Below are positions 12,531 to 53,059 of a DNA stretch of 64,000 nucleotides, piece after piece (the stretch's first letter is position 1; every line of letters begins with the position of its first letter). The DNA lies in assembly GCF_963921235.1 (NCBI RefSeq), contig NC_086108.1:27716001-27780000 (forward strand), read 5' to 3'. This DNA comes from Mobula hypostoma (lineage: Eukaryota). Position numbers and translations under genes: made by a program. The notes below the pieces were generated by a model that was not told the DNA's origin, searched no databases, and was given only the letters and a program-made list of their open reading frames with translations.

Positions 12531-15500
12531 ATAAGACCATAAGAGCGTAAGATATAGGAGCAGAATTAGGCCATTTGGCCCATCAAGTATGCTGTGCCGC
12601 TTCATTATGCCTGATTGAATTTTCCTCTCAGCCCCAACCAATCTCCTGCGTTCTCCCCATATACCTTCATGCTCTGACCAATCAAGAATCTATCAAACGC
12701 TGCCTTGGCCTCTACAGTTGCCCGTGTCAAAGAATTCCGGTGATTTTGGGTAAACCACTCTCTGGCTAAAGAAATTCCTTCTCATCTCTGTTCAAAAAGG
12801 ACATCCCTCTGTTATGAGACTGTACCCTCTGGTCTTAGACTCTCCCACCATAGGGAACACCCTCTCTACATCCACTCTATCAAATCCTTTCACCAGTTGG
12901 TAGATTTCAATGAGGGCACCCCGCATTCTTCTGAAATCTAGTGAATACAAGCCCAGAGCCATCAAACACTCTTCCTATGACACACCATTCAATCCTGGAA
13001 TCATTTTAGTAAACCTCCATTGAACCTTTTCATGTTTCAGCACATCCTTTTTTAGATAAAAGCCCCAAACCCGCTCACAATACTCCAAGTGGAGTCTCAC
13101 CAGTGCTTTACAAAGTTTCAACATTATATCCTTGTTTTTATATGCTAGTCCTCTTGAAAGGAATGCTAACATTGCATTTGTTTTGCTCACCACAGATTCA
13201 ACCTACAAATTAACCTTCAGGGAATCCTGCACAAGGACAACCAAGGACTCCTCAGTTTTTTGTATTTTCTGTCCATTTAGAAAATAGTCAACACTTTCAT
13301 TTCTTCTACCAAAGTGCATGACCATACATTTCCTGACTTTGCATTCCATCTGCTATTTCTTTGCCTATTTTCCTAACCTGGCTATGTCCTTCTGTAGCCT
13401 CTCTACTACCTCTAAACTACCTGCCCCTCCACCTATCTTCATATCATCTGCAAACTTTACAACAAATTCACAATTCCATTATCCAAATCATTGACATATA
13501 ACATAAAGAGAATTGGTCCCAACACAGACCTCTATGAAAAATTGCTAGTCACCGGCAGCCAGTCAGAAAAGGCTCCCTTTATTCCCACTCTTTGCCTCCT
13601 ATCAATTATCCACTACTTTATCCATGCCAGTATCTTTTCTGTAATCCCATGGGCTCATAGCTTGCTAAACAGCACTATGTCTGGCACCTTGTCAAAGGCC
13701 TTCTGAAAATCCAATATACATCAGCCCATTCTCTTTTCATCTATCCTGCTTGTTACTTATTTAAAGAATTCCAACAGATTTGTCAAGCAAGATTTTCTCT
13801 TGAGGGAACCTTGCTGACTACAGCTTATTTTATCATGTGCCTCCAAGTACCCTGAGACCTCATCCTTAATAATCAACTCCAACAGCTTCCCAACCACTGA
13901 AGTCAGACTAACTGGCCTATAGTTTCCTTGCTTCTGCCTCTCAATCTTCTGGAATAGTGGAGTGACATTTGTGATTTTCCAGTCCTCTGGAACCATTCCA
14001 GAATCAAGTGAATCTTGAACGATCATTACTAATGCCTCCTTGATCTCTTCAGCCACCTCTTTCAGAAATCTGAAGTGCACGCCATCTGGTCCATGTAACA
14101 TATCTAACTTCAGAGATTCAGTTTCCCAAGAACCTTCTCTCTCATTATTGTAACTTCACACACTTTATGCCCCCTGACACATGGAACTTCCACCATATTG
14201 CTAGTGTCATCTGCTATTTCATTGTCCCCATTACTAACCCTCCAGCATCTTTTTCCAGTTGTCTGATATTCACTCTCACATCTCTTTTACACTTTATGTA
14301 TCTGAAGAAACTTTTGATATCTTCTTTAATATTATTGGCTAGCTTCTTTTGTATTCCATCTTCTTTATGGCTTTTTAGTTGCCTTCTGTTGGTCTTTAAA
14401 AGCATCCTAATCCTCTACCTTCTGAACATCTTTTGCTCTGTTATATGCCCTCTTTTTTGGTTTTATGTTGGCTTTGACTTATCTTGTTAGCCATGGTTGT
14501 GTCATCTTTCCTTTAGAACACTTCTTCTTTGGGATGTATATATCCTGTGCCTTCCGAATTGCTTCCAGAAACTCCAGCCATTGCTGCTCTGCCATCATCC
14601 CTGCCTGTGTTTGGCATGGTCCGGTCCGTGAAGTCCGTATTCCCCTTCACGGTCCATTCCATCGACCCTTGCTCCAGGTTTTCCTGTCTACCCTGTTTCT
14701 GTTCTTGTTGAGCTCTAATTGAGGCAGCTGATGCTCGTTGGGGCTGGCTGCATAAATACCTTCAGAGACCAGGGTGTGGCTGCAAGATTGTTCTTGTCCT
14801 TACTCCTTGTATCCCTTCCTCTGCCTTCTGTTTCCTCGCCTGAAGCCTTGCCTTGCCTTGCCTTGCCTTGTCTTGTCGCTAACTCTCACCTCACCTGAAG
14901 TTCTCATTTCACCTTGCATTGCCTGAAGCCTTGCCTGGTCTTGCTGGTAACTCTTGCCTCGTCTCGCCTGCAGTCTTGTCCTGGAGCCACCCCATACCTA
15001 GCTCCCTTCCTGTCCCTTGCTTCCGCCGGGTAAATCTGGCTGTCTTGCCATTACCCTGCGGTTGATTCTGTCCCTTCCTGTCTCTTGCCTCCCTCGGGTA
15101 AGCCAGGCCATCTTGCCGTTACCTATGGTTGGTTCTGTCCCTTCCTAACCCTTGCCTCCGTCGGGTAAGCCAGGACGTATTGCCGTTACCTGTGGTTGGA
15201 TCTGTCCCTTCCTAACCCTTGCCTCCGTCGCGTAAGCCAGACCGTCTGGCCGTTACTTACGGTTGGTTCTGTCCCTTCCTGTTCCTTGCCTACGTCGGAT
15301 GGAGTTCCATGCACTGCCCAGGAGTACTGCACCCTGCCCAGGAGGAACCAAGCCTCGCCTCTAGTCTCTAGCCTCAAGCTTAAAGACTCCAGCCTCCTGC
15401 CTCCTGCCAAGCCTCGCCTCTAGTCTCCAGTCTCAAGTCTGAAGACTTCAGCCTCCCGTCTCCTGCCAAGCCTCGCCTCAAGTCTCCAGCCTCTAGCCTC

Positions 15501-18500
15501 CTGCCAAGACTTGCCTCAAGTCTCCAGCCTCTAGCCTCCTGCCAAGCCTCGATTCAAGTCTCTAGCCTCTAGCCTCCTGCCAAGCTTCGCCTAAAGTCTC
15601 TAGCCTCTAGCCTCAAGCCTGAAGACACCAGTCTCCTGCTTCCTGCCAAGCCTTGTCCTTGACTAGTTCTGGGGTCCGAGCCAGAGGCAAGACCCAGGTA
15701 CAGGATCCTTGCCCAGTCTCTGGCTCGGAGTCCAAGCCCAGGCTCCTAGCTCTCTTGTCCAGTCCTGTTCTGGGTTCCTGGTTTTTCGTGTCCATGTCCT
15801 TGCCCCCACCCTGTATCCTAGTCCTGTCCCTAGTACTTCAGTGTCTGTGTCTTGCACTTGGGTCCGTTCCTAGCCACCGCCGTATGACAGAACAATACAG
15901 CCAACCATGGACTCAGCGACACAGACACTGTTGTTTTCCTCTTGCCACCCGGGGTTCCTTTCTGTTAGATACCCTCCCACCCGTCGGGGTCGTCCATAGT
16001 CTGGATACCCTGTTTGGTCACCAGGAGGCTCCCGTAGAGGGGGGGTACTGTCATGGTCCAGTCCGTGAAGTCCATATTCCGGTTCAGTCTGGTCCATCGA
16101 CCCTTGCTCCAGGTTTTCTTGTCTACCCTGTTTCTGTTCTTGTTGAGCTCTAATTGAGACAGCTGATTCTCATTGGGGCTGGCTGCATAAATACCTTCAG
16201 AGACCAGGGTGTGGCTGCTGGATTGTTCTTGTCCTTACTCCTTGTATCCCTTCCTCTGCCTTCTGATTCCTCGCCTGAAGTCTTGCCTTGTCTTGCCGGT
16301 AACTCTCGCCTTGCCTGAAGTTCTCATTTAGCCTTGCATTGCCTGAAGCCTTGCCTGGTCTTGCTGGTAACTCTCACCTCGTCTCGCATGCAGTCTTTTC
16401 CTGGAGCCACCCCATACCTAGCTCCCTTTCTGGCCCTTGCCTCCGCCAGGTAAGTCTGGCTGTCTTGCCATTACCCTACAGTTGATTCTGTCCCTTCCTG
16501 TTCCTAGCCTCCATCGGGTAAGCCAGGCCGTCTTGCCATTACCTGCGGTTGGTTCTGTCCCTTCCTGTTCCTCGCCTCCATCGGGTGGAGTTCCGCACCC
16601 TGCCCAGGAGAAGCCAAGTCTCACCTCTACTTTCTAGCCTCAAGCCTGAAGACTCCAGCCTGCTGCCTCCTGCCAAGCCTAGCCTCAAGTCTCCAACCTC
16701 CCGCCTCCTGCCAAGCCTTGCCTCAAGTCTCCAGCCTCAAACCTGAAGACTCCAGCCTCCTGCCAAGCCTTTCCTCTAATCTCCAGCCTCAAGCTTGAAG
16801 ATTCCAGCCTCATGCCTCCTGCCAAGCCCCACCTCAAGTCTCTAGCCTTAAGTCTGAAGATTCCAGCCTCCTGCATCCTGCCAAGCCTTGGCTCTAGTCT
16901 CTAGCTTCAAGCCTGAAGACTCCAGCCTCCTGCCTCCTGCCAAGCCTCGCCTCAAGTATCCATCCTCCTGCCTCCTGCCAAGCCTCGCCTCGTCTCCAGC
17001 CTCCTGCCTTCTGCCAAGTCTCGCCTCAAGTTTCTAGCCTCTAGCCTCCTGCCAAGCCTCACCTCAAGTCTCTAGCCCAAAGCCTGAAGGGTCCAGCCTC
17101 CTGCCTCCTGCCAAGCCTCGTCCTTGCCTAGTTCAGGGGTCCGAGCCAGAGGCAAGACCCAGGTACTGGGTCCTTGTCCAGTCTCTGGCTCAGAGTCCAA
17201 GCCCGGGCTCCTAGCTCTCTTGTCCAGTCCTGTTCTGGGTTCCCGGTTTTTAGTGTCCATGTCCTTGCCCCCACCCTGTATCCTAGTCCTGTCCCTAGTA
17301 CTTCAGTGTCTGTGTCTTGCACTTTGGTCGTTCCATGCTACCCCCTTATGATAGTGTTCTTTTCCAATCAATTCGGGCCAGCTCCTCTCTCATGCCTCTG
17401 TAATTCCCTTTACTCCAGAGTATTACTGATACATCTGACTTTAGCTTCTCCTTCTCAAATTTCAGGGTGAATTCGATCATAACTTTCCTTTCAGGGTTCT
17501 TCTACCTTAAACTCACTATCAATTCTTGCTCATTGCACAACACCCATTTCAGAATAGCTGATCCTCTAGTGGGCTCAACCATGAGCTGCTCAGAAACCCA
17601 TCTCATAGGCACTCTAGAAATTCTCCTTCCTGCAATCCAGCACCAAACTGATCTTCCCAATCTCCCTGCATATTGAAGTCCACCATGTTTTTGTAACACT
17701 GCCCTTTTGGCATGCATTTTCTATCTCCATTATAACTTGTGGGGCATATCCTTACTATTGTTTGGGGGTCTCATCAGGATCTATTTACCCTTGCAGTTCC
17801 TTAGCTCTATCCACAATGATTCAACACCTTCTGACCCTATGTCACCTCTTTCTAATGATTTGATTTCATTTTTACCAACAGAGCAACATCACCCCCTTTG
17901 CATTCCTGCCTATCCTTTCAATATAATGCCTACACTTGGACATTAAGCTCCTAGCTATAATCTTTCAGTCATGATTCAGTGATGTCTGCAACATGAAAGC
18001 TGCCAATCTGCAACTGTGCTGCTAGTTCATCTACCTTATTCCAGACACCGCGCGCATTCAATAGAACAACTTCTGTCCTGTATTCACCGTTTTCAATTTT
18101 GTCTGCATTTTACATTACAACTCATCCTGTTGACTGCAATTTTGCCTTATCAACAGCCTCTCCTCAGTACACATTGCTTCTGCTTGTAAACCAGCTACCA
18201 CATCCACAGCTCTGTATCCACCTTTCCTATGATACTTCTTGCATTAAAATTTAGGCAGCTCAGGACACTAGTCACACCATGCTCAACCTTTTAATTCCTA
18301 ACCATGTCTAAAGTCTTAAACTGTTCTGGCATTCTGCTTCCCATCCTTCCTGCAACTTGAGTTTAAACTCCACCATGCGGCATTAACAAACCCTTCCCCT
18401 AGGATATTAGTCCCCCTCCTTTTCAGGTACAAACCATCCCTTTGTACAGGTCCCTCCTTCCCTGAAAGAGAGCCCAATAATTCAAAAATATTTTGCCCTC

Positions 18501-28989: not shown

Positions 28990-31900
28990 TACATACTTTA
29001 TACTTTATTGTCACCAAAAGATGGATACTAGAATGTACAATCATCACAGAGATATTTGATTCCGCGCTTCCCGCTCCCTGGATTACAAATATTAAATATT
29101 AATCATATTAAAATAGTAAAAATTAGTAAAATTAAAAAAATTAAATTATAGATCATAAATAGAAAATAGAAAAATAGAAAGTAAGGCAGTGCAAAAAAAC
29201 AAAGAGGCAGGTCTGGATATTTGGAGGGTATGGTCCAGATCCAGGTCAGGATCTGTTCAGCAGGCTTATCACAGTTGGAAAGAAGCTGTTCCTGTCATAA
29301 GGTGGTGGCTGGGAATGGACCCAAGTGCAAGACACAGACACTGAAGTACTAGGGAGAGGACTAGGATACAGGGTGAGGGCTCAGACATGGACACGAAAAC
29401 TGGGAACCTGGAAAAGGACTGGACAAGAGAGCTAGGAGCCCTAGCTTGGACTCCGAGCTAAAGACTGGACAAGGATCCAGAACCTGGGTCTTGCCTCTGG
29501 CTCAGACACCAGAACTAGGCAAGGACATGACTTGGCTGGCAGGCAGGATGAGGCCGGAGACCAGAGGCTTGAAGCGAGGCCAGAGACCAGAGGCTTGAAG
29601 CGAGGTTCCGCTAGAGGCTTGAGGCGAGGCTCGGCTGGAGGCTTGCGGCGAGGCTCGGGTGGAGGCTTGAGGCAAGGCTCGGGTGGAGGCTTGAGGCAAG
29701 GCTCGGCTGGAGACTTGGGGACTTGAAGCTTGTCCTGGGCAGGGCGTGGATCTCCACCCAATGGAGGTGAGGGACAGGAAGGGACAGAACCAGCCACAGG
29801 GTAATGGCAATCTGGCCTGATTTACTTGATGGTGGCAAGGGACCGGAAAGTACAGAACCCACCGCAGGGGAACAGCAAACTGGCCTGGCTTACCCGACTG
29901 AGGCAAGAGACAGGAAGGGAGCTAGGTTCAGGGTGGCTCCAAGACAAGACTTCAGGTGAGACGAGGCGAGAGTTACCGGCAAGACAAGGCAAGGCTTCAG
30001 GCAGTGCAGGGTGAGACAAGAACTTCAGGCGAGGCGAGAGTTACCGGCAAGACAAGGCAAGGCAAGGTTTCAGGCGAGGAAACAGAAGGCAGGGGAAGGG
30101 ATACAAAGAGCAAGGACAAGAACAATCCAACAGCCACGCCCTGGTCTTTGGAGGTATTTATGCAGCCAGCTCCAATGAGAATCAGCTGCCTCAATTAGTG
30201 CTCAACAGGAACAGAAACAGGGTAGACAGGATAACCTGGAGCGAGGGTCAATGGACTGGACCGTGAACCGGAATGCAAACTTCACGGACCGGATCATGAT
30301 GGTTCCCAAATCTGCCCATATGAGTCTTCAAGCTCCTGAGCCTTCTTCCGGAGGGAAGAGGGACAAAAAGTGTGTTGGCTGGGTGGGTCGTGTCCTTGAT
30401 TATCCTGGCAGCACTGCTCCAACAGCGTGCGGTGTAAAGTGAGTCCAAGGACAGGAGATTGGTTTGTGTGATGCGCTGCGCCATGTTCACGATCTTCTGT
30501 GGTTCTTTCGGTCTTGGACAGGACAACTTCCATAGCAGGTTGTGATGCACCCTAGAAGAATGCTTTCTACGGTGTATCTGTAAAAATTAGTGAGGGTTTT
30601 AGGGGACAGGCCACATTTCTTTAGTTTTCTCAGGAAGTAAAGGCACTGGTGGGCCTTCTTGGCAGTGAACTCTGCTTGGTTGGAACAAGTCAGGTCATTT
30701 GTGATATTGACCCCGAGGAGCTGAAAGATTTTGACCTGTTCCATTTGTGCACCACCGATGTAAATTGGGTTGTGCGGTCCGCTACTCCATCTGAAGTCAA
30801 CAACCAATTCCTTCGTCTTGCTGACGTTGAGGGATAGGTTATTGTCTTCGCACCATGCCATCAGGTTCTTAATTTCCTCTCTGTCCTCAAACTCATCATT
30901 ACCCGAGATATGGCCTACAATTGTTGTGTCATCAGCAAACTTATATATTGAGTTTGGATGGAAACAAGGCTACACAATCATGGGTGTACAGTGCAGGGGG
31001 CTGAGTACACAGCCTTGTGGGGCACCGGTGCTCAGAGTGATTGTAGAGGAGAGCTTGTTCCCTATTTTTAAAGCCTGGGTCCTGTCTGTGAGGAAGTTGA
31101 AGATCCAGCTACAGATCTGAGTGCTAAGTCCCAGGTTCCGGAGCTTAGGAATCAGTTTATTTGGAATGATGGTATTAAATGCTGAGCTGTAGTCAATGAA
31201 AAGGAGCCTTACATATGCGTCGTTATTCTCCAGGTGTTCTAAGGAGGAATGTAGGGCTGGAGAGATGGCATCTGCCGTTGACCTGTTGCTCCAGTAGGCG
31301 AATTGCAAGGTATCGAAGTTGACCAGTAGGCTGTGGCTGATGTGTGCCCTAACCAATCTCTCGAAGCACTTCATAGCAATTGATGTCAGAGCCACAGTTC
31401 GATAGTCATTCAGGCATGCCACCTTGCTCTTCTTCGGCACTTGGATTATCGTTGCCTTCTTAAAACACGAGGGGATCTTAGACTGAAGCAAGGAGCAGTT
31501 GAAGGTATCAGCAAACATTCCAGCTAGTTCGCTTGCACAGGCCCGGAGAACCGGTCCTGGGACGCCACCTGGGCCCGTCGCCTTCCTTGGATTTATCTTC
31601 AGGAAGGCCCTTCTAATGTCCTCCTCGGTGACGATGAATCTCGATGCCATCAGGTTCGGTTCATCCGGAGGGAGCGGGACACTCCTCTTCTGTTCGAATC
31701 TTGCGTAGAATACGTTAAGTTCATCAGGAAGAGAAGTGCCACAGTTATTGAAATTCCCAGCCTTTTCTTTGCACCCAGTGATCTCATTTAGACCCTGCCA
31801 TAGTCTACTGGCATCCCTCTGGTTAGCCTCAGCTTCCAACTTGGCTCGATATTGCCTTTTGACACCCTTAATGGCTTTCCGGAGTTCACGGTTGGAATCC

Positions 31901-33105
31901 GTGTAGCGACTGGTATCCCCGGACCTAAAAGCTGCAGCTCTAGCCTTTAAAAGGGGCTTGACCTCATAATTCATCCAAGGTTTCTGGTTAAGGAATACCC
32001 GGATCATCTTGCGAGACACACAGTCCTCCATGCATTTCCAAATAAAGTTCCTGACAGCTGAGGCATACTCATCGAGGTTAACTGCCGAGTCCTTGAATAC
32101 CAACCAGTCCACCGATTCAAAGCAGTCACGGAGCACCTCATCCGTTTCCTCCGTCCAACGCGACATGACTTTTGACACCGTGACCTCTCGCTTCAGTTTC
32201 TGTTTGTAAGCTGGGAGGAGGAGTACGGCCTGATGGTCCGATTTTCCAAAGTGAGGTCGTGGGACGGAACAGTAGGCATCCTTGACTGCTGTGTAACAGT
32301 AGTCAAGTATATTCAGGCATATGGGTCAGGAGACATGCTGGTATAACTTTGGCAGTGCCTTTCTGAGGTTGGCCTGGTTTAAGTCCCCAGCTGTAATGAG
32401 CAAAGCCGCCGGATACCTGGTCTCAAGTTCACTGATGTTGGCGTACAGTATGTTCAGAGCACACTCCACGTCCGCCTGGGGGGGAATGTAGACCGCTGTC
32501 AGTATGACCGAGGTGAATTCCCATGGCAGATGGTAGGGACGACACTTCACCGACAGGTTTTCCAGGTCCGGGCTGCAGGAGCTTGTCAGTGCCATTGTGT
32601 CCGAGCACCACACAGTGTTGATCAGTAGGTAGACACCATCTCCCCTCGTCTTGCCCAAAGAGGCCATGCGGTCCATCCGATGGATCGAAAATCCCTCCGG
32701 TCGGATGGCACAGTCAGGGGTGGCAGAGGAGAGCCAGGTCTCGGTGAAACAGAACACACAGCAGTTCTGCATCTCCCTGCAGTAGGTGAGTCTCCCTTTA
32801 AGATCATCCACCTTGTTCTCTATGGCTTGCACATTAGCTAGTAGGATGGTAGGCATAGGGACTGCTCTGGAGAGATGCTGGTCGGAATGGGCCGTGTCTC
32901 CAAGCGCTCAGGCACGGTAACAGACCGCAGGTCTCCGGGAACATGGTGGGCCTCGGACCAGGCCTCGTTGGTGGGGTCCAGGTGCAGTCCGGAGTTTAAG
33001 GAGCAATTCTGGCGCAGTGGTCCCCAGCTGGGTCAGTAGCTTTGCCAGGATGTTGTTGATCTTGGTCTTGCTAGATTGGAGGTTTAGAAGGGTTTAGAAG
33101 GGTTT
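28990..33105 (-). mobile_element. Near full-length Rex1/Babar LINE inserted in Gypsy LTR
   Basis: ORFs 32326-32856 (LANVQ, CFTETWL), 30970-32178 (YRTVALTS, FIDYSSAFNT, GAPQGCVLSP) and 30487-30861; tandem tail near 28990. Confidence 0.93.
29293..30301 (-). mobile_element. Solo LTR of the same family as 14612-17353
   Basis: Reverse complement of those LTRs; 5-bp TSD GTTCC (29288-29292, 30302-30306); splits the Rex1 RFGNSFF motif. Confidence 0.92.
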
Positions 33106-41608: not shown

Positions 41609-41750
41609 CCCCAGCACATTGTGACACTAGCATACTGTATCCCCAGCCCATTGTGACACCAGCATACTGTATCCCCAGCACATTGTGACACCAGCATACT
41701 GTATCCCCAGCCCATTGTGACACCAACATAATGTATCCGCAGCCCACAAT
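41609..41750. repeat. 32-bp minisatellite, ~4.4 copies, inside a minus-strand non-autonomous repeat (~41495-42060)
   Basis: Unit CCCCAGC(A/C)CATTGTGACACCAGCATACTGTAT at 41609, 41641, 41673, 41705. Confidence 0.9.
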
Positions 41751-42244
41751 GTTCAGCAGAACAACACAAGCAACGACAATAACAAAACAAAGCAAAACAA
41801 GCCCCTTTCCTCCATCCCACCCACCTACTCACACACACAGTCAGTCCTCCAACCCTAGGGCAAGCCGCCTCCTGGCCTCCAGCCTCAATGGACTTACAAA
41901 CTCACAAACTAAGGGCTTCGACCATCGAGCCTTGACCTTCAGACTCGCTGACTTCAGTCTTCAATCTTTGATCCCCAATATTCGGTATTGGCCCTAGAAT
42001 TCACCGATAATGGGGCCTCAAACTCCAGGCTTTGAATTCCAGACTCTCCGATATGTGCAACTGCAGTCCAAATTAACAACCGGAACCAGAAAGGTAGTAA
42101 TTTCTTGGTCGCTACCTTAGCCATGCATCCACTTTATGTGGGATGTAGATCACCTTTAAATTAGTGGGTGGAGGTAAAGTAGGTTCCAGTGATACAAACA
42201 TTAACACTTGGTTACTATGGCTGTCTTCTCCTGCTGGTTCCTTT

Positions 42245-47460: not shown

Positions 47461-47725
47461 TTTTTTTTTTAAACCATTGATTTTAAAATATCCTACAGAA
47501 AAAAATATGAGCAGTCCTTTGGCATATCCACTGATTTTCTAGATCCAATGGGACAGGTGAATTCTATCAAGAGTCTGTCCCATGGGGCGTCACGTGATGA
47601 CGTGGGATTGAGACGTGTAAATCCAGCTCTCCCGCAACAAATTAGTAAAGTACCGTTTAAACAAAACAAAGTTAATAAATATTTTCTGAAAACTATTTAT
47701 AAACTTTGTAAGACTACTTTACGAT

Positions 47726-48843
47726 ATGCCTCCTAAACCGCAACAAAAGAAGTCTGCTGTTGCAAAGCAGCCGCGAGAGGGGAAGAAAAAAGGGCCTACT
47801 GCAACGATGGAGCCTCGGACTCAGGTTGGATCTCCTTCGGTAGCACAGGGAGCAATGGCGGTGGTAACGGGTTCTTCGAAGAAGGCACCGGAAATGCGCA
47901 TGCGCAAAGAAGAGCGCATGCGCAAATCGACACAATGCAAACTACAAGAACCGACAGCCACTGCAATTGAAAATGACTCAGAGTCAGAATTGGATTCTAC
48001 AGAGAACACAGATGAAGAAGAGGAGGAAGAATTGGAAGCGATTGGAAGTAAAGGAGATGATAGAGACATAAGAGAGGCTATATTGCAATTAACGGCTGAG
48101 CTAAGAAAAGTAAGAGAAGAGCTTAGAGATACGAATATGTGCTATAATAAAGTTATGGAAAGACAGGACAAAATGGATAAGAAGCTTCAAAAGATGGAAA
48201 GAGCAATGGGGCATATGAATGATAGAGTGGAAAAAGCAGAAAATGATTTGCTTGTCTGGAACTCAGAAAGAAATCGACTCTTGGAGAAAGTGGACATGTT
48301 GGAAAATTTCAGTAGATGTAATAATATTAAAATTGTTGGTCTTAAAGAAGGTACGGAGGGAGAAAAACCAATAGAATTTTTTCAAAAATGGATCCCGGAT
48401 GTTTTGCAAATGGAAGAGGAGGTTCGACCAATTGAAATTGAACGGGCACATAGAACTCTAAGACCAAAACCAAAAGATGACCAATATCCACAATCGATTT
48501 TAATAAAATTCTTAAGATTTCAAGACAAGGAAAGGATTCTACAGGCAGCTGCTCGAGCTGCCAAGGATAGAAAAGAGCCATTGATAATTAAAGGGAACAA
48601 AGTTTTTTTCTACCCTGATATAAGTTATGAACTTTTGAAGAGAAGGAAGAAATTTAATCCAGTGAAAAAAAACCCTATGGGATCATGGTTATCAATTTAT
48701 ACTGTGTTATCCTGCAACCTTGAAGATTTTTTTGCCTGGTGGAGAAAAGAGATTTTTTGATGACTACCAGAAAGCAGAGCGGTTTGTGCGAGATTCTCTG
48801 AATATTCACCAGATACAAGAACAAATCCAGGGGAGCGAGATAG
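47726..48843 (+). pseudogene. L1 ORF1p (coiled coil, RRM, CTD), frameshift in A-run ~48670
   Basis: LENFSRCNNIKIVGL, IEIERAHR, FYPDIS; continues YPATLKIF in another frame. Confidence 0.9.
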
Positions 48844-49316
48844 ATTGAAGATGAAGATTGGGTTAAAGAATGGACTTGTTGGATTTTTGAAGCTGGATGA
48901 ATGTATAAATATATCATTAATTATACGAGGGGGGTAAGAAAGGTTAAAACTGGAGGAATATTAGTTGTGAATAGTAACACTAATTTTGTCTGTATATATA
49001 TAATTTTTTTTGTTGCGGGGCAGCTGGAAGAAGCACTGATCGATTGCTATGCTAATCATGTGTGCAAGCGTGGCTTTTGCCACGACCCGTAAAATGGAGG
49101 GGGGTAGTGTTGTGTATCTTTTCATTCACAACATTAGTGGAGGGGTATTTTGTTTTTTCTTTTTTTGTATTCTTTCTATCTTTTCTTTTCTTTTTGCCTG
49201 GAAGGTTGGGAGGGAAACACATAGCAACATGGTGAAGTTTAAAGAGATTCCCCAAGGAGATATGAGAGTTGAGAAGATAAGTAATGTTTTAGATTGGAGT
49301 AACTTTGTTAAGAATA

Positions 49317-52300
49317 ATGACTAATTTATTGAATTTTTTGAGTTTTAATGTTAATGGGCTTAATGGACCAGTGAAAAGAAAAATAATCTTAACACATATT
49401 AAAAAAATGAAGATAGATTTATCTTTTTTACAGGAAACACACCTAACAGAAACAGAACATCAGAAACTAAAGAGAGATTGGGTGGGAAGTGTTGTTGCGG
49501 CTTCATTTCATTCAAAAGCGAGGGGAGTAGCAATTTTGATCAATAAAACGTTACCAATTAGAATACAAAATGTAATAACTGATTCTGCGGGGAGATATGT
49601 GATTATACATTGTCAATGTTTTTCTGAATTATGGACTTTTATGAATATTTATGCACCAAACGAAAATGATGCAAAATTCATACAAGAAGCTTTTCTGAAT
49701 TTGGCGGATGCACATGAAAAAATATTAATTGGAGGAGACTTTAATTTTTGCTTAGAACCAGTCTTAGATAGATCAATCAAGGCTGTTATAAAATCGAAGG
49801 TAGTAAATTTAACTTTATCATTGATGAAGGATTTAAATTTGATTGATATATGGAGAAGAATCAATCCTAAAGAAAGAGACTATTCGTTCTATTCCCATAG
49901 ACATAAAACTTACTCAAGGATAGATTTGTTTCTATTATCAATGCATATTCAACACAGAGTGAAAAATATGGAATATAAAGCAAGAATATTATCAGATCAT
50001 TCCCCTTTATTAATGACAATAATAATGGCTGATAAGGAAGAAGTGGCTTATAGATGGAGATTTAATTCAACATTATTAAAACGTCAAGATTTCTGTGATT
50101 TTATGAAAAAGCAGATTCAATTTTTTTTGGATACAAATTTTCATTCAGTGGATGATAAATTTATATTATGGGATGCGATGAAAGCATATCTTAGGGACCA
50201 GATAATAAGTTATACGTCTAAAATTAAAAAAGAATATATGGCAGAACTAGATCAACTGGAAAAAGAGATTACAAAAATAGAAAAAGAATCTCAAAGATAT
50301 ATGTCAGAAGAAAAACGAAGACAACTTGTTAATAAGAAGTTACAATATAAAATGCTTCAGACATATAGAACGGAAAAAGCAATTATAAGAACTAAACAAA
50401 GGTATTATGAGTTAGGTGAGAGAGCACATAAAATTTTTGCCTGGCAGTTGAAAACAGAACAAGCTTCCAAAACAATAAATGCAATTAGAACAAGGGCAAA
50501 TAGAATATCTTATAAACCTCTTGAAATAAATGAAACTTTTAAAAATTTCTATTCTGAATTATATCAATCAGAATCCCAAAATGATGTTAATGAGATAGAA
50601 AGGTTTTTATCACAAATTTCTCTTCCAAAATTGAATTTGGAAGAACAGAAGGGATTAGATATGCCTTTTACATTAAAAGACGTTGAAGAAGCTTTAGTAT
50701 CACTCCAAAGTAATAAATCTCCAGGAGAAGATGGTTTTCCACCTGAATTTTATAAAAAATTTAAAGATTTATTATTTCCTCTTTTTATGGAACTAATACG
50801 TCAAGCAGAAAAAATACAAAAACTTCCAGAATCTTTTTCAACAGCGATTGTAATAGTATTGCCAAAAAAAGACAGAGACCCTATGAAACCAACATCATAC
50901 AGGCCTATTTCTTTATTGAATACGGATTATAAAATAATAGCAAAATTTTTATCGAATAGATTATCTAAATATTTACCAAAATTAATACATATGGATCAAA
51001 CAGGATTTATTAAAAATAGACAATTGGCAGATAATGTAACCCGGCTACTCAGTATAATTCATTTGGCACAAAAAAGGGATGAGAAGAGTATAGTAGTAGC
51101 TTTGGATGCAGAAAAAGCATTTGATAGATTAGAATGGGATTTTTTATTTAAAGTATTAGAAAAATATGGGTTAGGAACATCTTTTATAAATTGGATTAAA
51201 ACTTTAAATTCTAACCTTAAAGCTAAAGTAGTGACAAATTCTCAAATTTCAACACCATTCCAGTTAAAAAGGTCAACTAGACAAGGTTGTCCATTATCAC
51301 CTGCTTTATTTGTACTGGCGATAGAGCCATTAGCAGAACTAATCAGAATTGATCCAGATATTATGGATTTTAGAGTTAATCAGGAGGAATATAAAATTAA
51401 TCATTTTGCCGATGATATTTTGATCTACTTAACAAACCCACAACATTCATTACATAAATTATCTTCTCAATTAGATGAATATGGGAAGGTATCAGGTTAC
51501 GAAATAAATTGGGATAAAAGTGAAATTTTACCTGTTACTAAAGGAGACTATAGTCAATGTCGATTAGTAACCCAATTTAGATGGCCGGTAAATGGTATAA
51601 AGTATTTAGGTATAAGACTTGATAATGATGTAAAGAATTTATATAAATTTAATTATTTACCACTGTTGAAAAAAATTCAAGAAGATTTTGACAAATGGAT
51701 GATACTACCAATAACATTAGTAGGTAGAGTCAATGTTGTAAAAATGAATATATTTCCTAGATTACAGTATTTGTTTCAAACATTACCAATACAATTGCCA
51801 CAGAAATTTTTCAAGAGTTAAGTAAATGTGTGAGAAAATTTCTTTGGAAAGGTAAAATGTCAAGAATATCATTGGAAAAATTGACATGTAAGTTTAGGTT
51901 AGGAGGGTTACAACTTCCAAACTTTAAAAACTATTATAAAGCAAATCAACTTAGATTTATTGCATCTTTCTTCGATGATCAAAAACCAGCATGGATTAAA
52001 ATAGAACTAGATAAGATAGGAGAAAATAGACCTGAAGATTTTATATATAAATGGGAATCTAAATGGATACGGGAAAAGAAAGAATCTCCTATATTAACAC
52101 ATTTGATTGATTTATGGAATAAGATAAACGATGATAATGAAACACAGAAATCTCTATTAGCAAGGAGACCTTTGTTCCAAAACAGACTTATTCCTTTTAC
52201 AATGGACAATCAACTTTTATATAATTGGTACCAAAAAGGGATTAAATTTATAGGAGATTGTTATGAACGAGGTATATTGATGTCATTTGAACAATTAAAG

Positions 52301-53059
52301 GATAAATATAAAATATCTAATAATACTTTCTTGTTACTTAAAAGGTAAGCTGGGTCTAACAATGTTTTTGCCAAAACCTAAGGAAATTGGAATTTTAATT
52401 CAAAAAGGGAAAATTAAAAAAATTATTTCTTGTATGTATAATTTGATTCAAGAACAGACAATTAAACAAGGAACCCATAAGTCAAAGCAAAAATGGGAAA
52501 CAGATTTGAATATTAATATTGATGAAACAAATTGGTCAAGAGTATGACAAATACAATAAATGTTCGACTTAGATTAGTACAATATAATTTTTTACACCAA
52601 TTATATATTACACCACAAAAAATAAATAGATTAAATTCAAATCTATCTGATAAATGCTTTCGGTGTAATCAAGGAATTGGTACTTTTTTACATTCTACTT
52701 GGTCTTGTTTTAAAATTCAACCCTTTTGGATAAATTTAAGAGTTTTATTGGAACAAATTACTGGAACTCAGCTTCCACATAACCCTGTATTATTTCTATT
52801 AGGTGATATTGAAGGGATAAAACCGAAACTTAAATTGAATAAATATCAGAAAGAATTTATAAAAATTGCATTGGCAGTAGCTAAGAAGACTATAGCAGTT
52901 ACTTGGAAATCTGATTCGTATTTAAGTATGGATCGTTGGAATAATGAAATGGCTAGTTCTATTCCACTCGAAAAAATTACTTATAATTTAAGAGATAAAT
53001 ATGTAACATTTTTGAATATTTGGCGCCCTTATTTACAAAAGATAGGATGGCATATTTAA
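49317..53059 (+). pseudogene. L1 ORF2p (APE endonuclease, RT, CCHC domain), frameshifted in the 3' part
   Basis: SFNVNGL, LQETH, GGDFN, SRID, SDH, YRPISL, LDAEKAFD, RQGCPLSP, FADD; CFRC...H...C; open to ~51820. Confidence 0.95.

Follow-up and report, generated by a model that had tools for sequence, protein, structure and literature searches.

How could a retrotransposon begin reverse transcription if it carries neither intact genes nor a recognizable site for a transfer RNA (tRNA) primer? The question is raised by a 2742-bp element in a 64,000-nt stretch of Mobula hypostoma DNA (NC_086108.1, positions 27,716,001 to 27,780,000), here called the window, in whose positions all unlabelled coordinates are given. 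Two long terminal repeats (LTRs) of more than 1 kb flank an interior of 159 bp (15890..16048; this and all other parts of the element are on the plus strand). A preliminary description of the window had seen here a miniature chromovirus-like element with a self-priming signal in place of a tRNA primer site. Our own answer runs along the same line: very probably the element belongs to a non-coding family with self-priming in its ancestry and use. The family goes back to chromodomain Gypsy elements, of which it keeps pieces of both ends; the opening bases of its own transcript likely served as primer, and borrowed proteins likely moved it.

A dispersed family with a common interior

The element is a member of a dispersed, old, non-coding LTR family. 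In the genome searched (3.48 Gb, 200 contigs), all 40 scored matches to a junction query span it from end to end. An exact 20-letter pattern joining LTR end and primer site has 141 matches, against none for the reversed control, and a variant of it adds 18 further matches. Since a 22-letter LTR pattern (with T at the base considered below) has 1164 exact matches against the 141 junctions, most of the LTRs are probably solo. Removal of four duplicates from 120 examined loci left 116 unique ones, 113 of which have the short interior of ~160 bp; two of the three exceptions are shorter deletions of that interior and the third is a satellite unit. Target-site duplications (TSDs) were assessed in the 61 copies with both ends visible and not scored as tandem: 40 are exact, 15 have one mismatch and six fail, and the 55 copies with a 5-bp TSD carry 54 different ones. 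Copies sharing the deletion junction under different TSDs, which the preliminary description had proposed to count, are therefore plentiful, and the junction is not private to this locus, the outcome that it had named as fatal to its reading, but part of an interior common to the whole family.

The 5′ LTRs measure 547-1555 bp (median 1141, n=87), their length and its variation across copies being due to tandem arrays of 67-, 59- and 38-bp units downstream of the predicted transcript start. A median LTR-pair identity of 92.9% (n=87), together with control CpG sites that are 60% intact and 40% decayed, marks the family as old, and it is extinct. Three subfamilies can be told apart, with markers linked at r 0.7-0.9 on both sides of the primer site. 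Junction and interior are also present in contigs of three other organisms, where loose ends suggest further interior variants. Fourteen loci (L008, L013, L065, L071, L090, L150, L152, L155, L157, L158, L166, L169, L170 and L174) hold tandem copies with one common LTR; the interior identity of 0.84-1.0 within these pairs suggests duplication after insertion rather than independent cDNA insertions.

Ancestry in chromodomain Gypsy elements

The coding relatives were reached through the gag domain DUF4939, which has 150 scored matches in the genome. When extended, such loci reveal LTR pairs of ~400-800 bp around gag, reverse transcriptase (RT), RNase H, integrase, SH3_Tf2-1 and Chromo. A Pfam scan of 40 of the 113 listed reading frames from six loci, in all of which the element is broken, identified the gag domains as DUF4939/Retrotrans_gag and found SH3_Tf2-1 in five relatives and Chromo in four (L100, L101, L102 and L105; two above the curated cut-off), the chromodomain lying behind the integrase. 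The nearest solved structure to the relatives' RT is that of Ty3. A search of the Atlas with the gag of one relative returned only generic retrotransposon gag clusters.

Alignment to these elements indicates that the interior goes back to chromodomain Gypsy elements of the same genome, of which it has kept the two ends. The stretch at 15949..16048 corresponds to the last ~100 nt of pol, the end of the chromodomain region, and runs into the polypurine tract; against the relatives' pol ends the interior scored above all 100 shuffles in 7/7 comparisons, with 70/99 bases identical for L098. Primer site and gag start scored above all 100 shuffles in 5/7 comparisons with the relatives' starts. The gag-start remnant lies at 15907..15950, its right border uncertain as the junction with the pol remnant is not exactly placeable by alignment, and the translations show its frame to be disrupted within the first codons. 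Both the chromovirus-like origin and the joining of a gag-like start to a pol-end-like stretch and polypurine tract, as initially proposed, are thus supported by the relatives' domains and by the alignment of the interior to their first and last bases.

The family LTRs cannot be aligned to those of the coding relatives and are two to three times longer. At L093/L094 an LTR related to the family is nested in another element; in L094 (1350-2290) it is 71% identical over 270 bp and lies within a chromovirus-like coding element, at the end of pol. A diverged sister with the same primer site and an interior 74% identical was noticed at L092/L073 (G000:C2, near 154.33 Mb).

Predicted pairing of the primer site with the LTR

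Directly behind the 5′ LTR, the window copy has the primer-binding site GAACAATACAGC (15890..15901), without TGG. Near-complements to it lie in the LTRs 30 nt past the A (14752 and 16187 in the element) of the TATA-like motif ATAAATA, found at 14752..14758 in the 5′ LTR and 16187-16193 in the 3′ LTR and presumed to act as a promoter box. The 3′ LTR retains the intact family-type self-primer sequence GCTGGATTGTTC (16217..16228), matching at 11/12 and with its base 8 (16224, T) opposite primer-site position 5. In the 5′ LTR, the predicted transcript 5′ end and self-primer are decayed (GCAAGATTGTTC, 14782..14793; 9/12), and a solo LTR elsewhere in the window has GTTGGATTGTTC (10/12). The site lacking TGG and all three near-complements had been pointed out in the preliminary description and were reproduced here. 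In the family, the primer site GAAC(A/G)ATCCAGC matches the LTR sequence GCTGGATTGTTC at 12/12, or at 11/12 plus one G-U pair, over a spacing of 0.5-1.3 kb that spans the tandem arrays.

Support for the self-priming reading comes from covariation. Of 106 coding loci, 77 are unique with a readable primer site, 22 have none and seven are duplicates. An upstream complement scoring at least 10/11 accompanies 47 of the 77 primer sites, whereas with reversed sites it does so in 1/77. Site and LTR types in the coding relatives are GAACGATCTGGC/GCCAGATCGTT, GAACGAACTGGC/GCCAGTTCGT, GTACAATCTGGC/GCCAGATTGT and GTACGATTGAGC/GCTCAATCGT, and a second miniature family has GAACGATCTAGC/GCTAGATCGTT. With the window family, there are six primer-site types, which show matched changes at positions 2, 5, 7, 8, 9 and 10. 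In most of them an AT-rich box, judged by eye, lies ~30 nt upstream of the complement. The pairing common to all types covers the ten bases of site positions 3-12 and so leaves two bases between the CA of the LTR and the shared pairing. The dinucleotide next to the LTR end is the one trimmed by integrase, and two spare bases are as expected.

When family copies selected for intact sites were folded from the predicted-start G to just past the primer site (spans of 468-1290 nt), the helix formed with a mean probability of at least 0.94 in 23 of 24, and with a probability of at least 0.84 in 4/6 coding relatives. Set against the three-duplex 'pretzel' around the primer helix in the Tf1/sushi group, the folds contain a 13-bp helix with short neighbouring helices.

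The second miniature family was noticed at L311:1170-5202 (G000:C2, near 53.68 Mb). It has an unrelated LTR of ~1.1 kb and an interior of ~320 bp, forms an LTR-interior-LTR-interior-LTR array, and its primer site GAACGATCTAGC is matched by GCTAGATCGTTA 956 nt upstream. Related to it is a satellite of at least 160 kb (L179-L208, G000:C1:193.48-193.64 Mb), whose units (~1.1-1.5 kb) are made up of the end of an LTR, a primer site and the start of gag.

The A/G split at primer-site position 5

The LTR base facing position 5 of the primer site is almost uniformly T: the LTR pattern is found with T in 1164 exact genome matches and with C in eight, and 198/201 LTRs read in fetched loci have T. Position 5 itself is divided: among the first 100 junction matches listed (of 141), a count by hand gives 59 with A and 41 with G. 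The variant-pattern copies read TG in 16 cases and TA in two at positions 4-5. As these two positions form a CpG, decay is the first suspect for the A allele. However, CA is found in 42/73 copies unselected by allele, where the 22 control CpG sites lead one to expect 26% (p=1e-8). Decay is also no greater in A copies (0.39) than in G copies (0.40). TG is at its ordinary level (16 per ~58 CG), so that the excess is specific to A; we estimate by hand that ~40% of copies were born with A. Coding relatives in which the facing base is C serve as a control, with 37 CG, 12 TG, seven CA and four others among 60 (Fisher p=1.4e-6 against 59:41). This control and the CA excess rule out CpG decay alone as the source of A. 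A satellite with a related G-type site, amplified as DNA, has 16 CG, 10 TG, three CA and one other among 30 units, which are not independent. In the three other organisms the A share is 16%, 69% and 35% against 2-12% at two control CpG sites, a weak comparison as it was made by summed contig depth, which is not copy number.

Nor do the alleles sort into two subfamilies. They correlate with subfamily markers at r 0.25 or less, while these markers are linked to one another, from one side of the site to the other, at 0.7-0.9. A tree was built from 111 copies (leaving out L072 and L073, and all columns at CpG sites, the primer site and the purine tract); on it the position-5 allele requires 38 changes, compared with 37.0 +/- 2.8 in 500 shuffles, whereas four lineage-linked CpG sites require 11-21 against 22-33. 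Two subfamilies as the source of the split are thereby ruled out. In 13/14 tandem pairs, five diverged A/A pairs among them, both units have the same born allele, which fits the presence of A at or soon after insertion.

Proposed mechanism and its alternatives

From the family, its TSDs, its ancestry, its pairing potential and the A/G split, all established directly, we infer the following course of events. The RNA would begin at the G 30 nt behind ATAAATA, and its first 10-12 bases would anneal to the primer site, 0.5-1.3 kb further downstream. A helper's RNase H would then release ~10 nt as the primer, in the manner of Tf1; the helper proteins were likely borrowed from a coding chromodomain Gypsy element. 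The minus strand would take G from the RNA; the plus strand, copying the primer, would take A. With T in the LTR opposite an ancestral G, each round of reverse transcription would produce an A/G heteroduplex, and each new insertion would be fixed as A or G at random. G is taken as ancestral because the second miniature family, the related satellite and the closest of the coding relatives all have it; in the founder, the C opposite it in the LTR was probably lost at a CpG, and the resulting G-U pair was tolerated. A corresponding mismatch rule is described for retroviruses, in which the plus strand copies the primer and the minus strand the RNA's site, with segregation after integration (PMC4549124), and in Tf1 about half of the particle cDNA is reported to have a 3′ end that carries the primer site copied into DNA (PMC11042837). 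On balance we favour reading the A/G split as a fossil heteroduplex, in which an insertion took its base either from the primer site in the RNA or from the 5′ end of the element itself; to a similarly modest degree we lean to the view that the A allele arose mainly by primer templating.

Several observations weigh against this account. No helix formed in 1/24 family copies and 2/6 coding relatives, and preselection for intact sites means that the folds speak for accessibility only. The transcript start at G is a predicted position, and no canonical poly(A) hexamer was found in the LTR behind it, leaving the R region undefined. Coding types mismatched at primer base 11 have no converted base at site position 2 (0/9 and 0/7), which is compatible only with a primer of at most 10 nt, unlike the 11 nt of Tf1. 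The autonomous partner that the preliminary description expected an LTR search to reveal did not emerge from narrow searches: the family primer site with an in-frame gag start has no genome match, and a coding-type pol end ahead of a family LTR has 11, all chance flanks. A relaxed helper pattern has 13, ten of them in satellite and three at two non-coding loci, and none of 16 extended DUF4939 loci has the family LTR as its own. The helper is therefore deduced, no coding element with the family LTR or primer site having been found. L066 was considered as a helper and rejected, as it is a satellite unit. The A share is also uneven: the three subfamilies have A:G of 20:5, 7:10 and 15:16, and in the middle one (S2, 7:10) A is above decay only at p=0.057. 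There, one of three tests (p=0.008) finds variants in common among A copies, so that some such copies descend from A masters; conversion itself would create such masters, but mutation plus selection could do so too. As the subfamilies are star-like, hidden multiple masters are possible.

These last points lead to the strongest rival for the allele, which keeps self-priming but traces the split to several masters in which a CpG G-to-A change was favoured since A-U pairs more strongly than G-U, with no primer-templated conversion. We hold it possible, though clearly the less probable course. Besides the uneven shares and the clustering in S2, the position within a CpG and an r of ~0.2 with S1 markers are in its favour. 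Against it, A copies do not cluster in S1 or S3 (p=0.72 and 0.88), the tree as a whole shows no signal although other CpG sites changed in masters are plainly lineage-linked, and G and A sites fold about equally well. Selection of masters for A-U pairing would, moreover, also presuppose the duplex.

It is improbable that the primer was instead a host tRNA fragment or other small RNA with two variants, the LTR match being incidental or structural. Fragment-primed LTR elements are described (PMC6317226, PMC10886601), and our direct comparison spans only nine tRNA-Lys sequences (among the best 30 genome matches), the longest match being 6 nt. Nevertheless, each of the six site types finds its match in its own LTR at one and the same position, far beyond the reversed-site control, the excess allele is the exact complement of the family's LTR base, and TGG is lacking. 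A tRNA primer, which the preliminary description had recognized as telling against its reading, is thus made unlikely by the missing TGG and the covariation, while direct comparison speaks for tRNA-Lys only. Marginally less credible again are masters that carried A, with G produced by A-to-I editing of paired RNA or by a copying hot spot: the site does lie inside a predicted RNA duplex, but G is the base of the relatives from which ancestry was judged, and at the remaining A positions of the site the BLAST-found copies are 97-100% invariant. A one-off post-insertion deletion, with complementarity a relic never used by the short form, would suit the decayed 5′ site and missing fold of the window copy and the want of a helper with the family LTR, but is refuted by dispersed copies with their own TSDs, the same interior recurring on many contigs, in all three subfamilies and in the contigs of three other organisms.

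Self-priming has been demonstrated in fission-yeast Tf1 and implicated from sequence in vertebrate chromoviruses (PMC4600332, PMC6317226). If self-priming with a heteroduplex at position 5 is correct for the present family, it would provide direct genomic evidence of the process at work in a vertebrate germ line, where until now it was predicted, and in a gene-less parasite with primer and site ~1 kb apart. The minimal needs of such a parasite would be ~160 bp of interior and no host tRNA. The standing mismatch between primer and site is a natural experiment in which the copies record which strand's template won. It would offer a DNA-only test of primer identity and length (~10 nt here) for any LTR family with a primer mismatch, and claims of self-priming could be put to the same allele count with any repeat library. 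A self-priming miniature is in itself incremental, and an old, inactive family implies a low stake for host biology; the allele imprint is the part of use to specialists, and the A/G split is what the present analysis adds.

The window copy and neighbouring repeats

The boundaries, TSD, ~1.3-kb LTRs and 159-bp insert given in the preliminary description were all reproduced. The TSD GTGTT stands at 14607..14611 and 17354..17358. The 5′ LTR (LTR1, 14612..15889, 1278 bp) has ~170 bp ahead of the predicted start and then ~1.1 kb with the tandem arrays; the 3′ LTR (LTR2) occupies 16049..17353 (1305 bp). The two are 93% identical at both ends, and their TG...CA termini are decayed (TGGCAT / ATGACA and TGTCAT / ATGATA). 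The polypurine tract AGAGGGGGGG (16036..16045), the G-run of which varies in length across the family, is followed by TAC and the 3′ LTR. The host site is an old fragment of a long interspersed nuclear element (LINE). When the two flanks are joined, another LINE copy in the window can be aligned with them over the insertion point, and this empty-site alignment confirms the element's boundaries. The longest open reading frame over the interior has no Pfam match, an Rfam scan of the element gave no match at a useful score and ARAGORN found no tRNA in the window.

The primer site of the window copy has A at position 5 (15894) and a private change at 15897. As the LTR supplying its primer would be LTR1, the poorer match, and folding gives no helix between its 5′ end and primer site, this copy is decayed and self-priming is probably no longer possible for it; to that extent the preliminary reading of this copy as self-priming needs correcting.

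The solo LTR of the same family (29293..30301, minus strand, TSD GGAAC) lies inside the 3′ end of a LINE. The open reading frame adjoining it is a LINE RT, which rules out that it is the end of a long element. The LINE whose 3′ end it breaks has endonuclease-like and RT frames (30340-32907, minus strand). A further long, AT-rich LINE at 47690-52348 (plus strand), with a 356-aa frame and an 842-aa frame containing endonuclease and RT, looks comparatively intact from its sequence. A minisatellite at 41609-41768 has a 32-bp unit of two 16-bp halves.

Comparison with known systems

In the broad sense, the element counts among the non-autonomous LTR retrotransposons: it has two LTRs with TG...CA, a TSD and a polypurine tract, lacks intact gag or pol, and is dispersed. 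Strict terminal-repeat retrotransposons in miniature, known as TRIMs, are described as less than 1 kb in total with terminal repeats of 100-250 bp (PMC6934838), so that the TRIM comparison made in the preliminary description does not extend to a 2742-bp element of a family with a median 5′ LTR of 1141 bp. Nor is there the tRNA-complementary primer site of strict TRIMs, TGG being absent and similarity to tRNA-Lys, the sole tRNA compared, at most 6 nt. In size the element falls within an undefined class of 1.5-4 kb (PMC13570524). With the Tf1/sushi group it shares a primer site complementary to its own LTR behind a TATA box, but of the encoded Gag-Pol with chromodomain only end remnants are left; it derives from that group and is no coding member of it.

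As described for Tf1/Tf2 of Schizosaccharomyces pombe, Tj1 and Tosmo1-3, the primer site behind the 5′ LTR pairs with the predicted RNA 5′ end behind the TATA box (PMC4600332, bioRxiv 2022.12.06.519325); the lack of a tRNA site, the polypurine tract, chromodomain ancestry and tandem copies with one LTR are further likenesses (PMC11042837). Unlike the Tf1 group, the window family is non-coding, has primer and site 0.5-1.3 kb apart across tandem arrays, has an all-type pairing of 10 rather than 11 nt, maintains a G-U mismatch with both alleles, and resides in a vertebrate-type genome. Self-priming is also described for sushi/V-clade chromoviruses (PMC6317226, bioRxiv 2022.12.06.519325). To sushi-ichi and the vertebrate V-clade the likeness is one of domains, the coding relatives having DUF4939/Retrotrans_gag, RT, RNase H, integrase, SH3_Tf2-1 and Chromo, whereas the window family retains an interior of ~160 bp.

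Biv-TRIM, Cassandra, Helenus, Ajax and the long-TRIMs are similar in being non-coding, with primer site and polypurine tract, 5-bp TSDs, solo LTRs and tandem arrays. The window element, at 2.7 kb with LTRs above 1 kb, exceeds published TRIM limits (PMC6934838), and vertebrate Helenus elements differ in that they are reported to use tRNA 3′ ends, no complementarity between LTR and primer site having been found for them (PMC10886601). We found no literature on a self-primed non-autonomous vertebrate element or a self-primer heteroduplex in a search that covered few subscription journals and neither Repbase nor Dfam, and the family may already be catalogued in repeat databases. The closest parallel to the A/G split is the Lys3/Lys5 primer-site polymorphism of human and simian immunodeficiency viruses, where a heteroduplex is described as resolving to either base independently of lineage (PMC4549124). 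In those viruses a variant host tRNA acts as primer; in the window family that part would fall to the element's own 5′ end, and what is left is a fossil record in germ-line copies.

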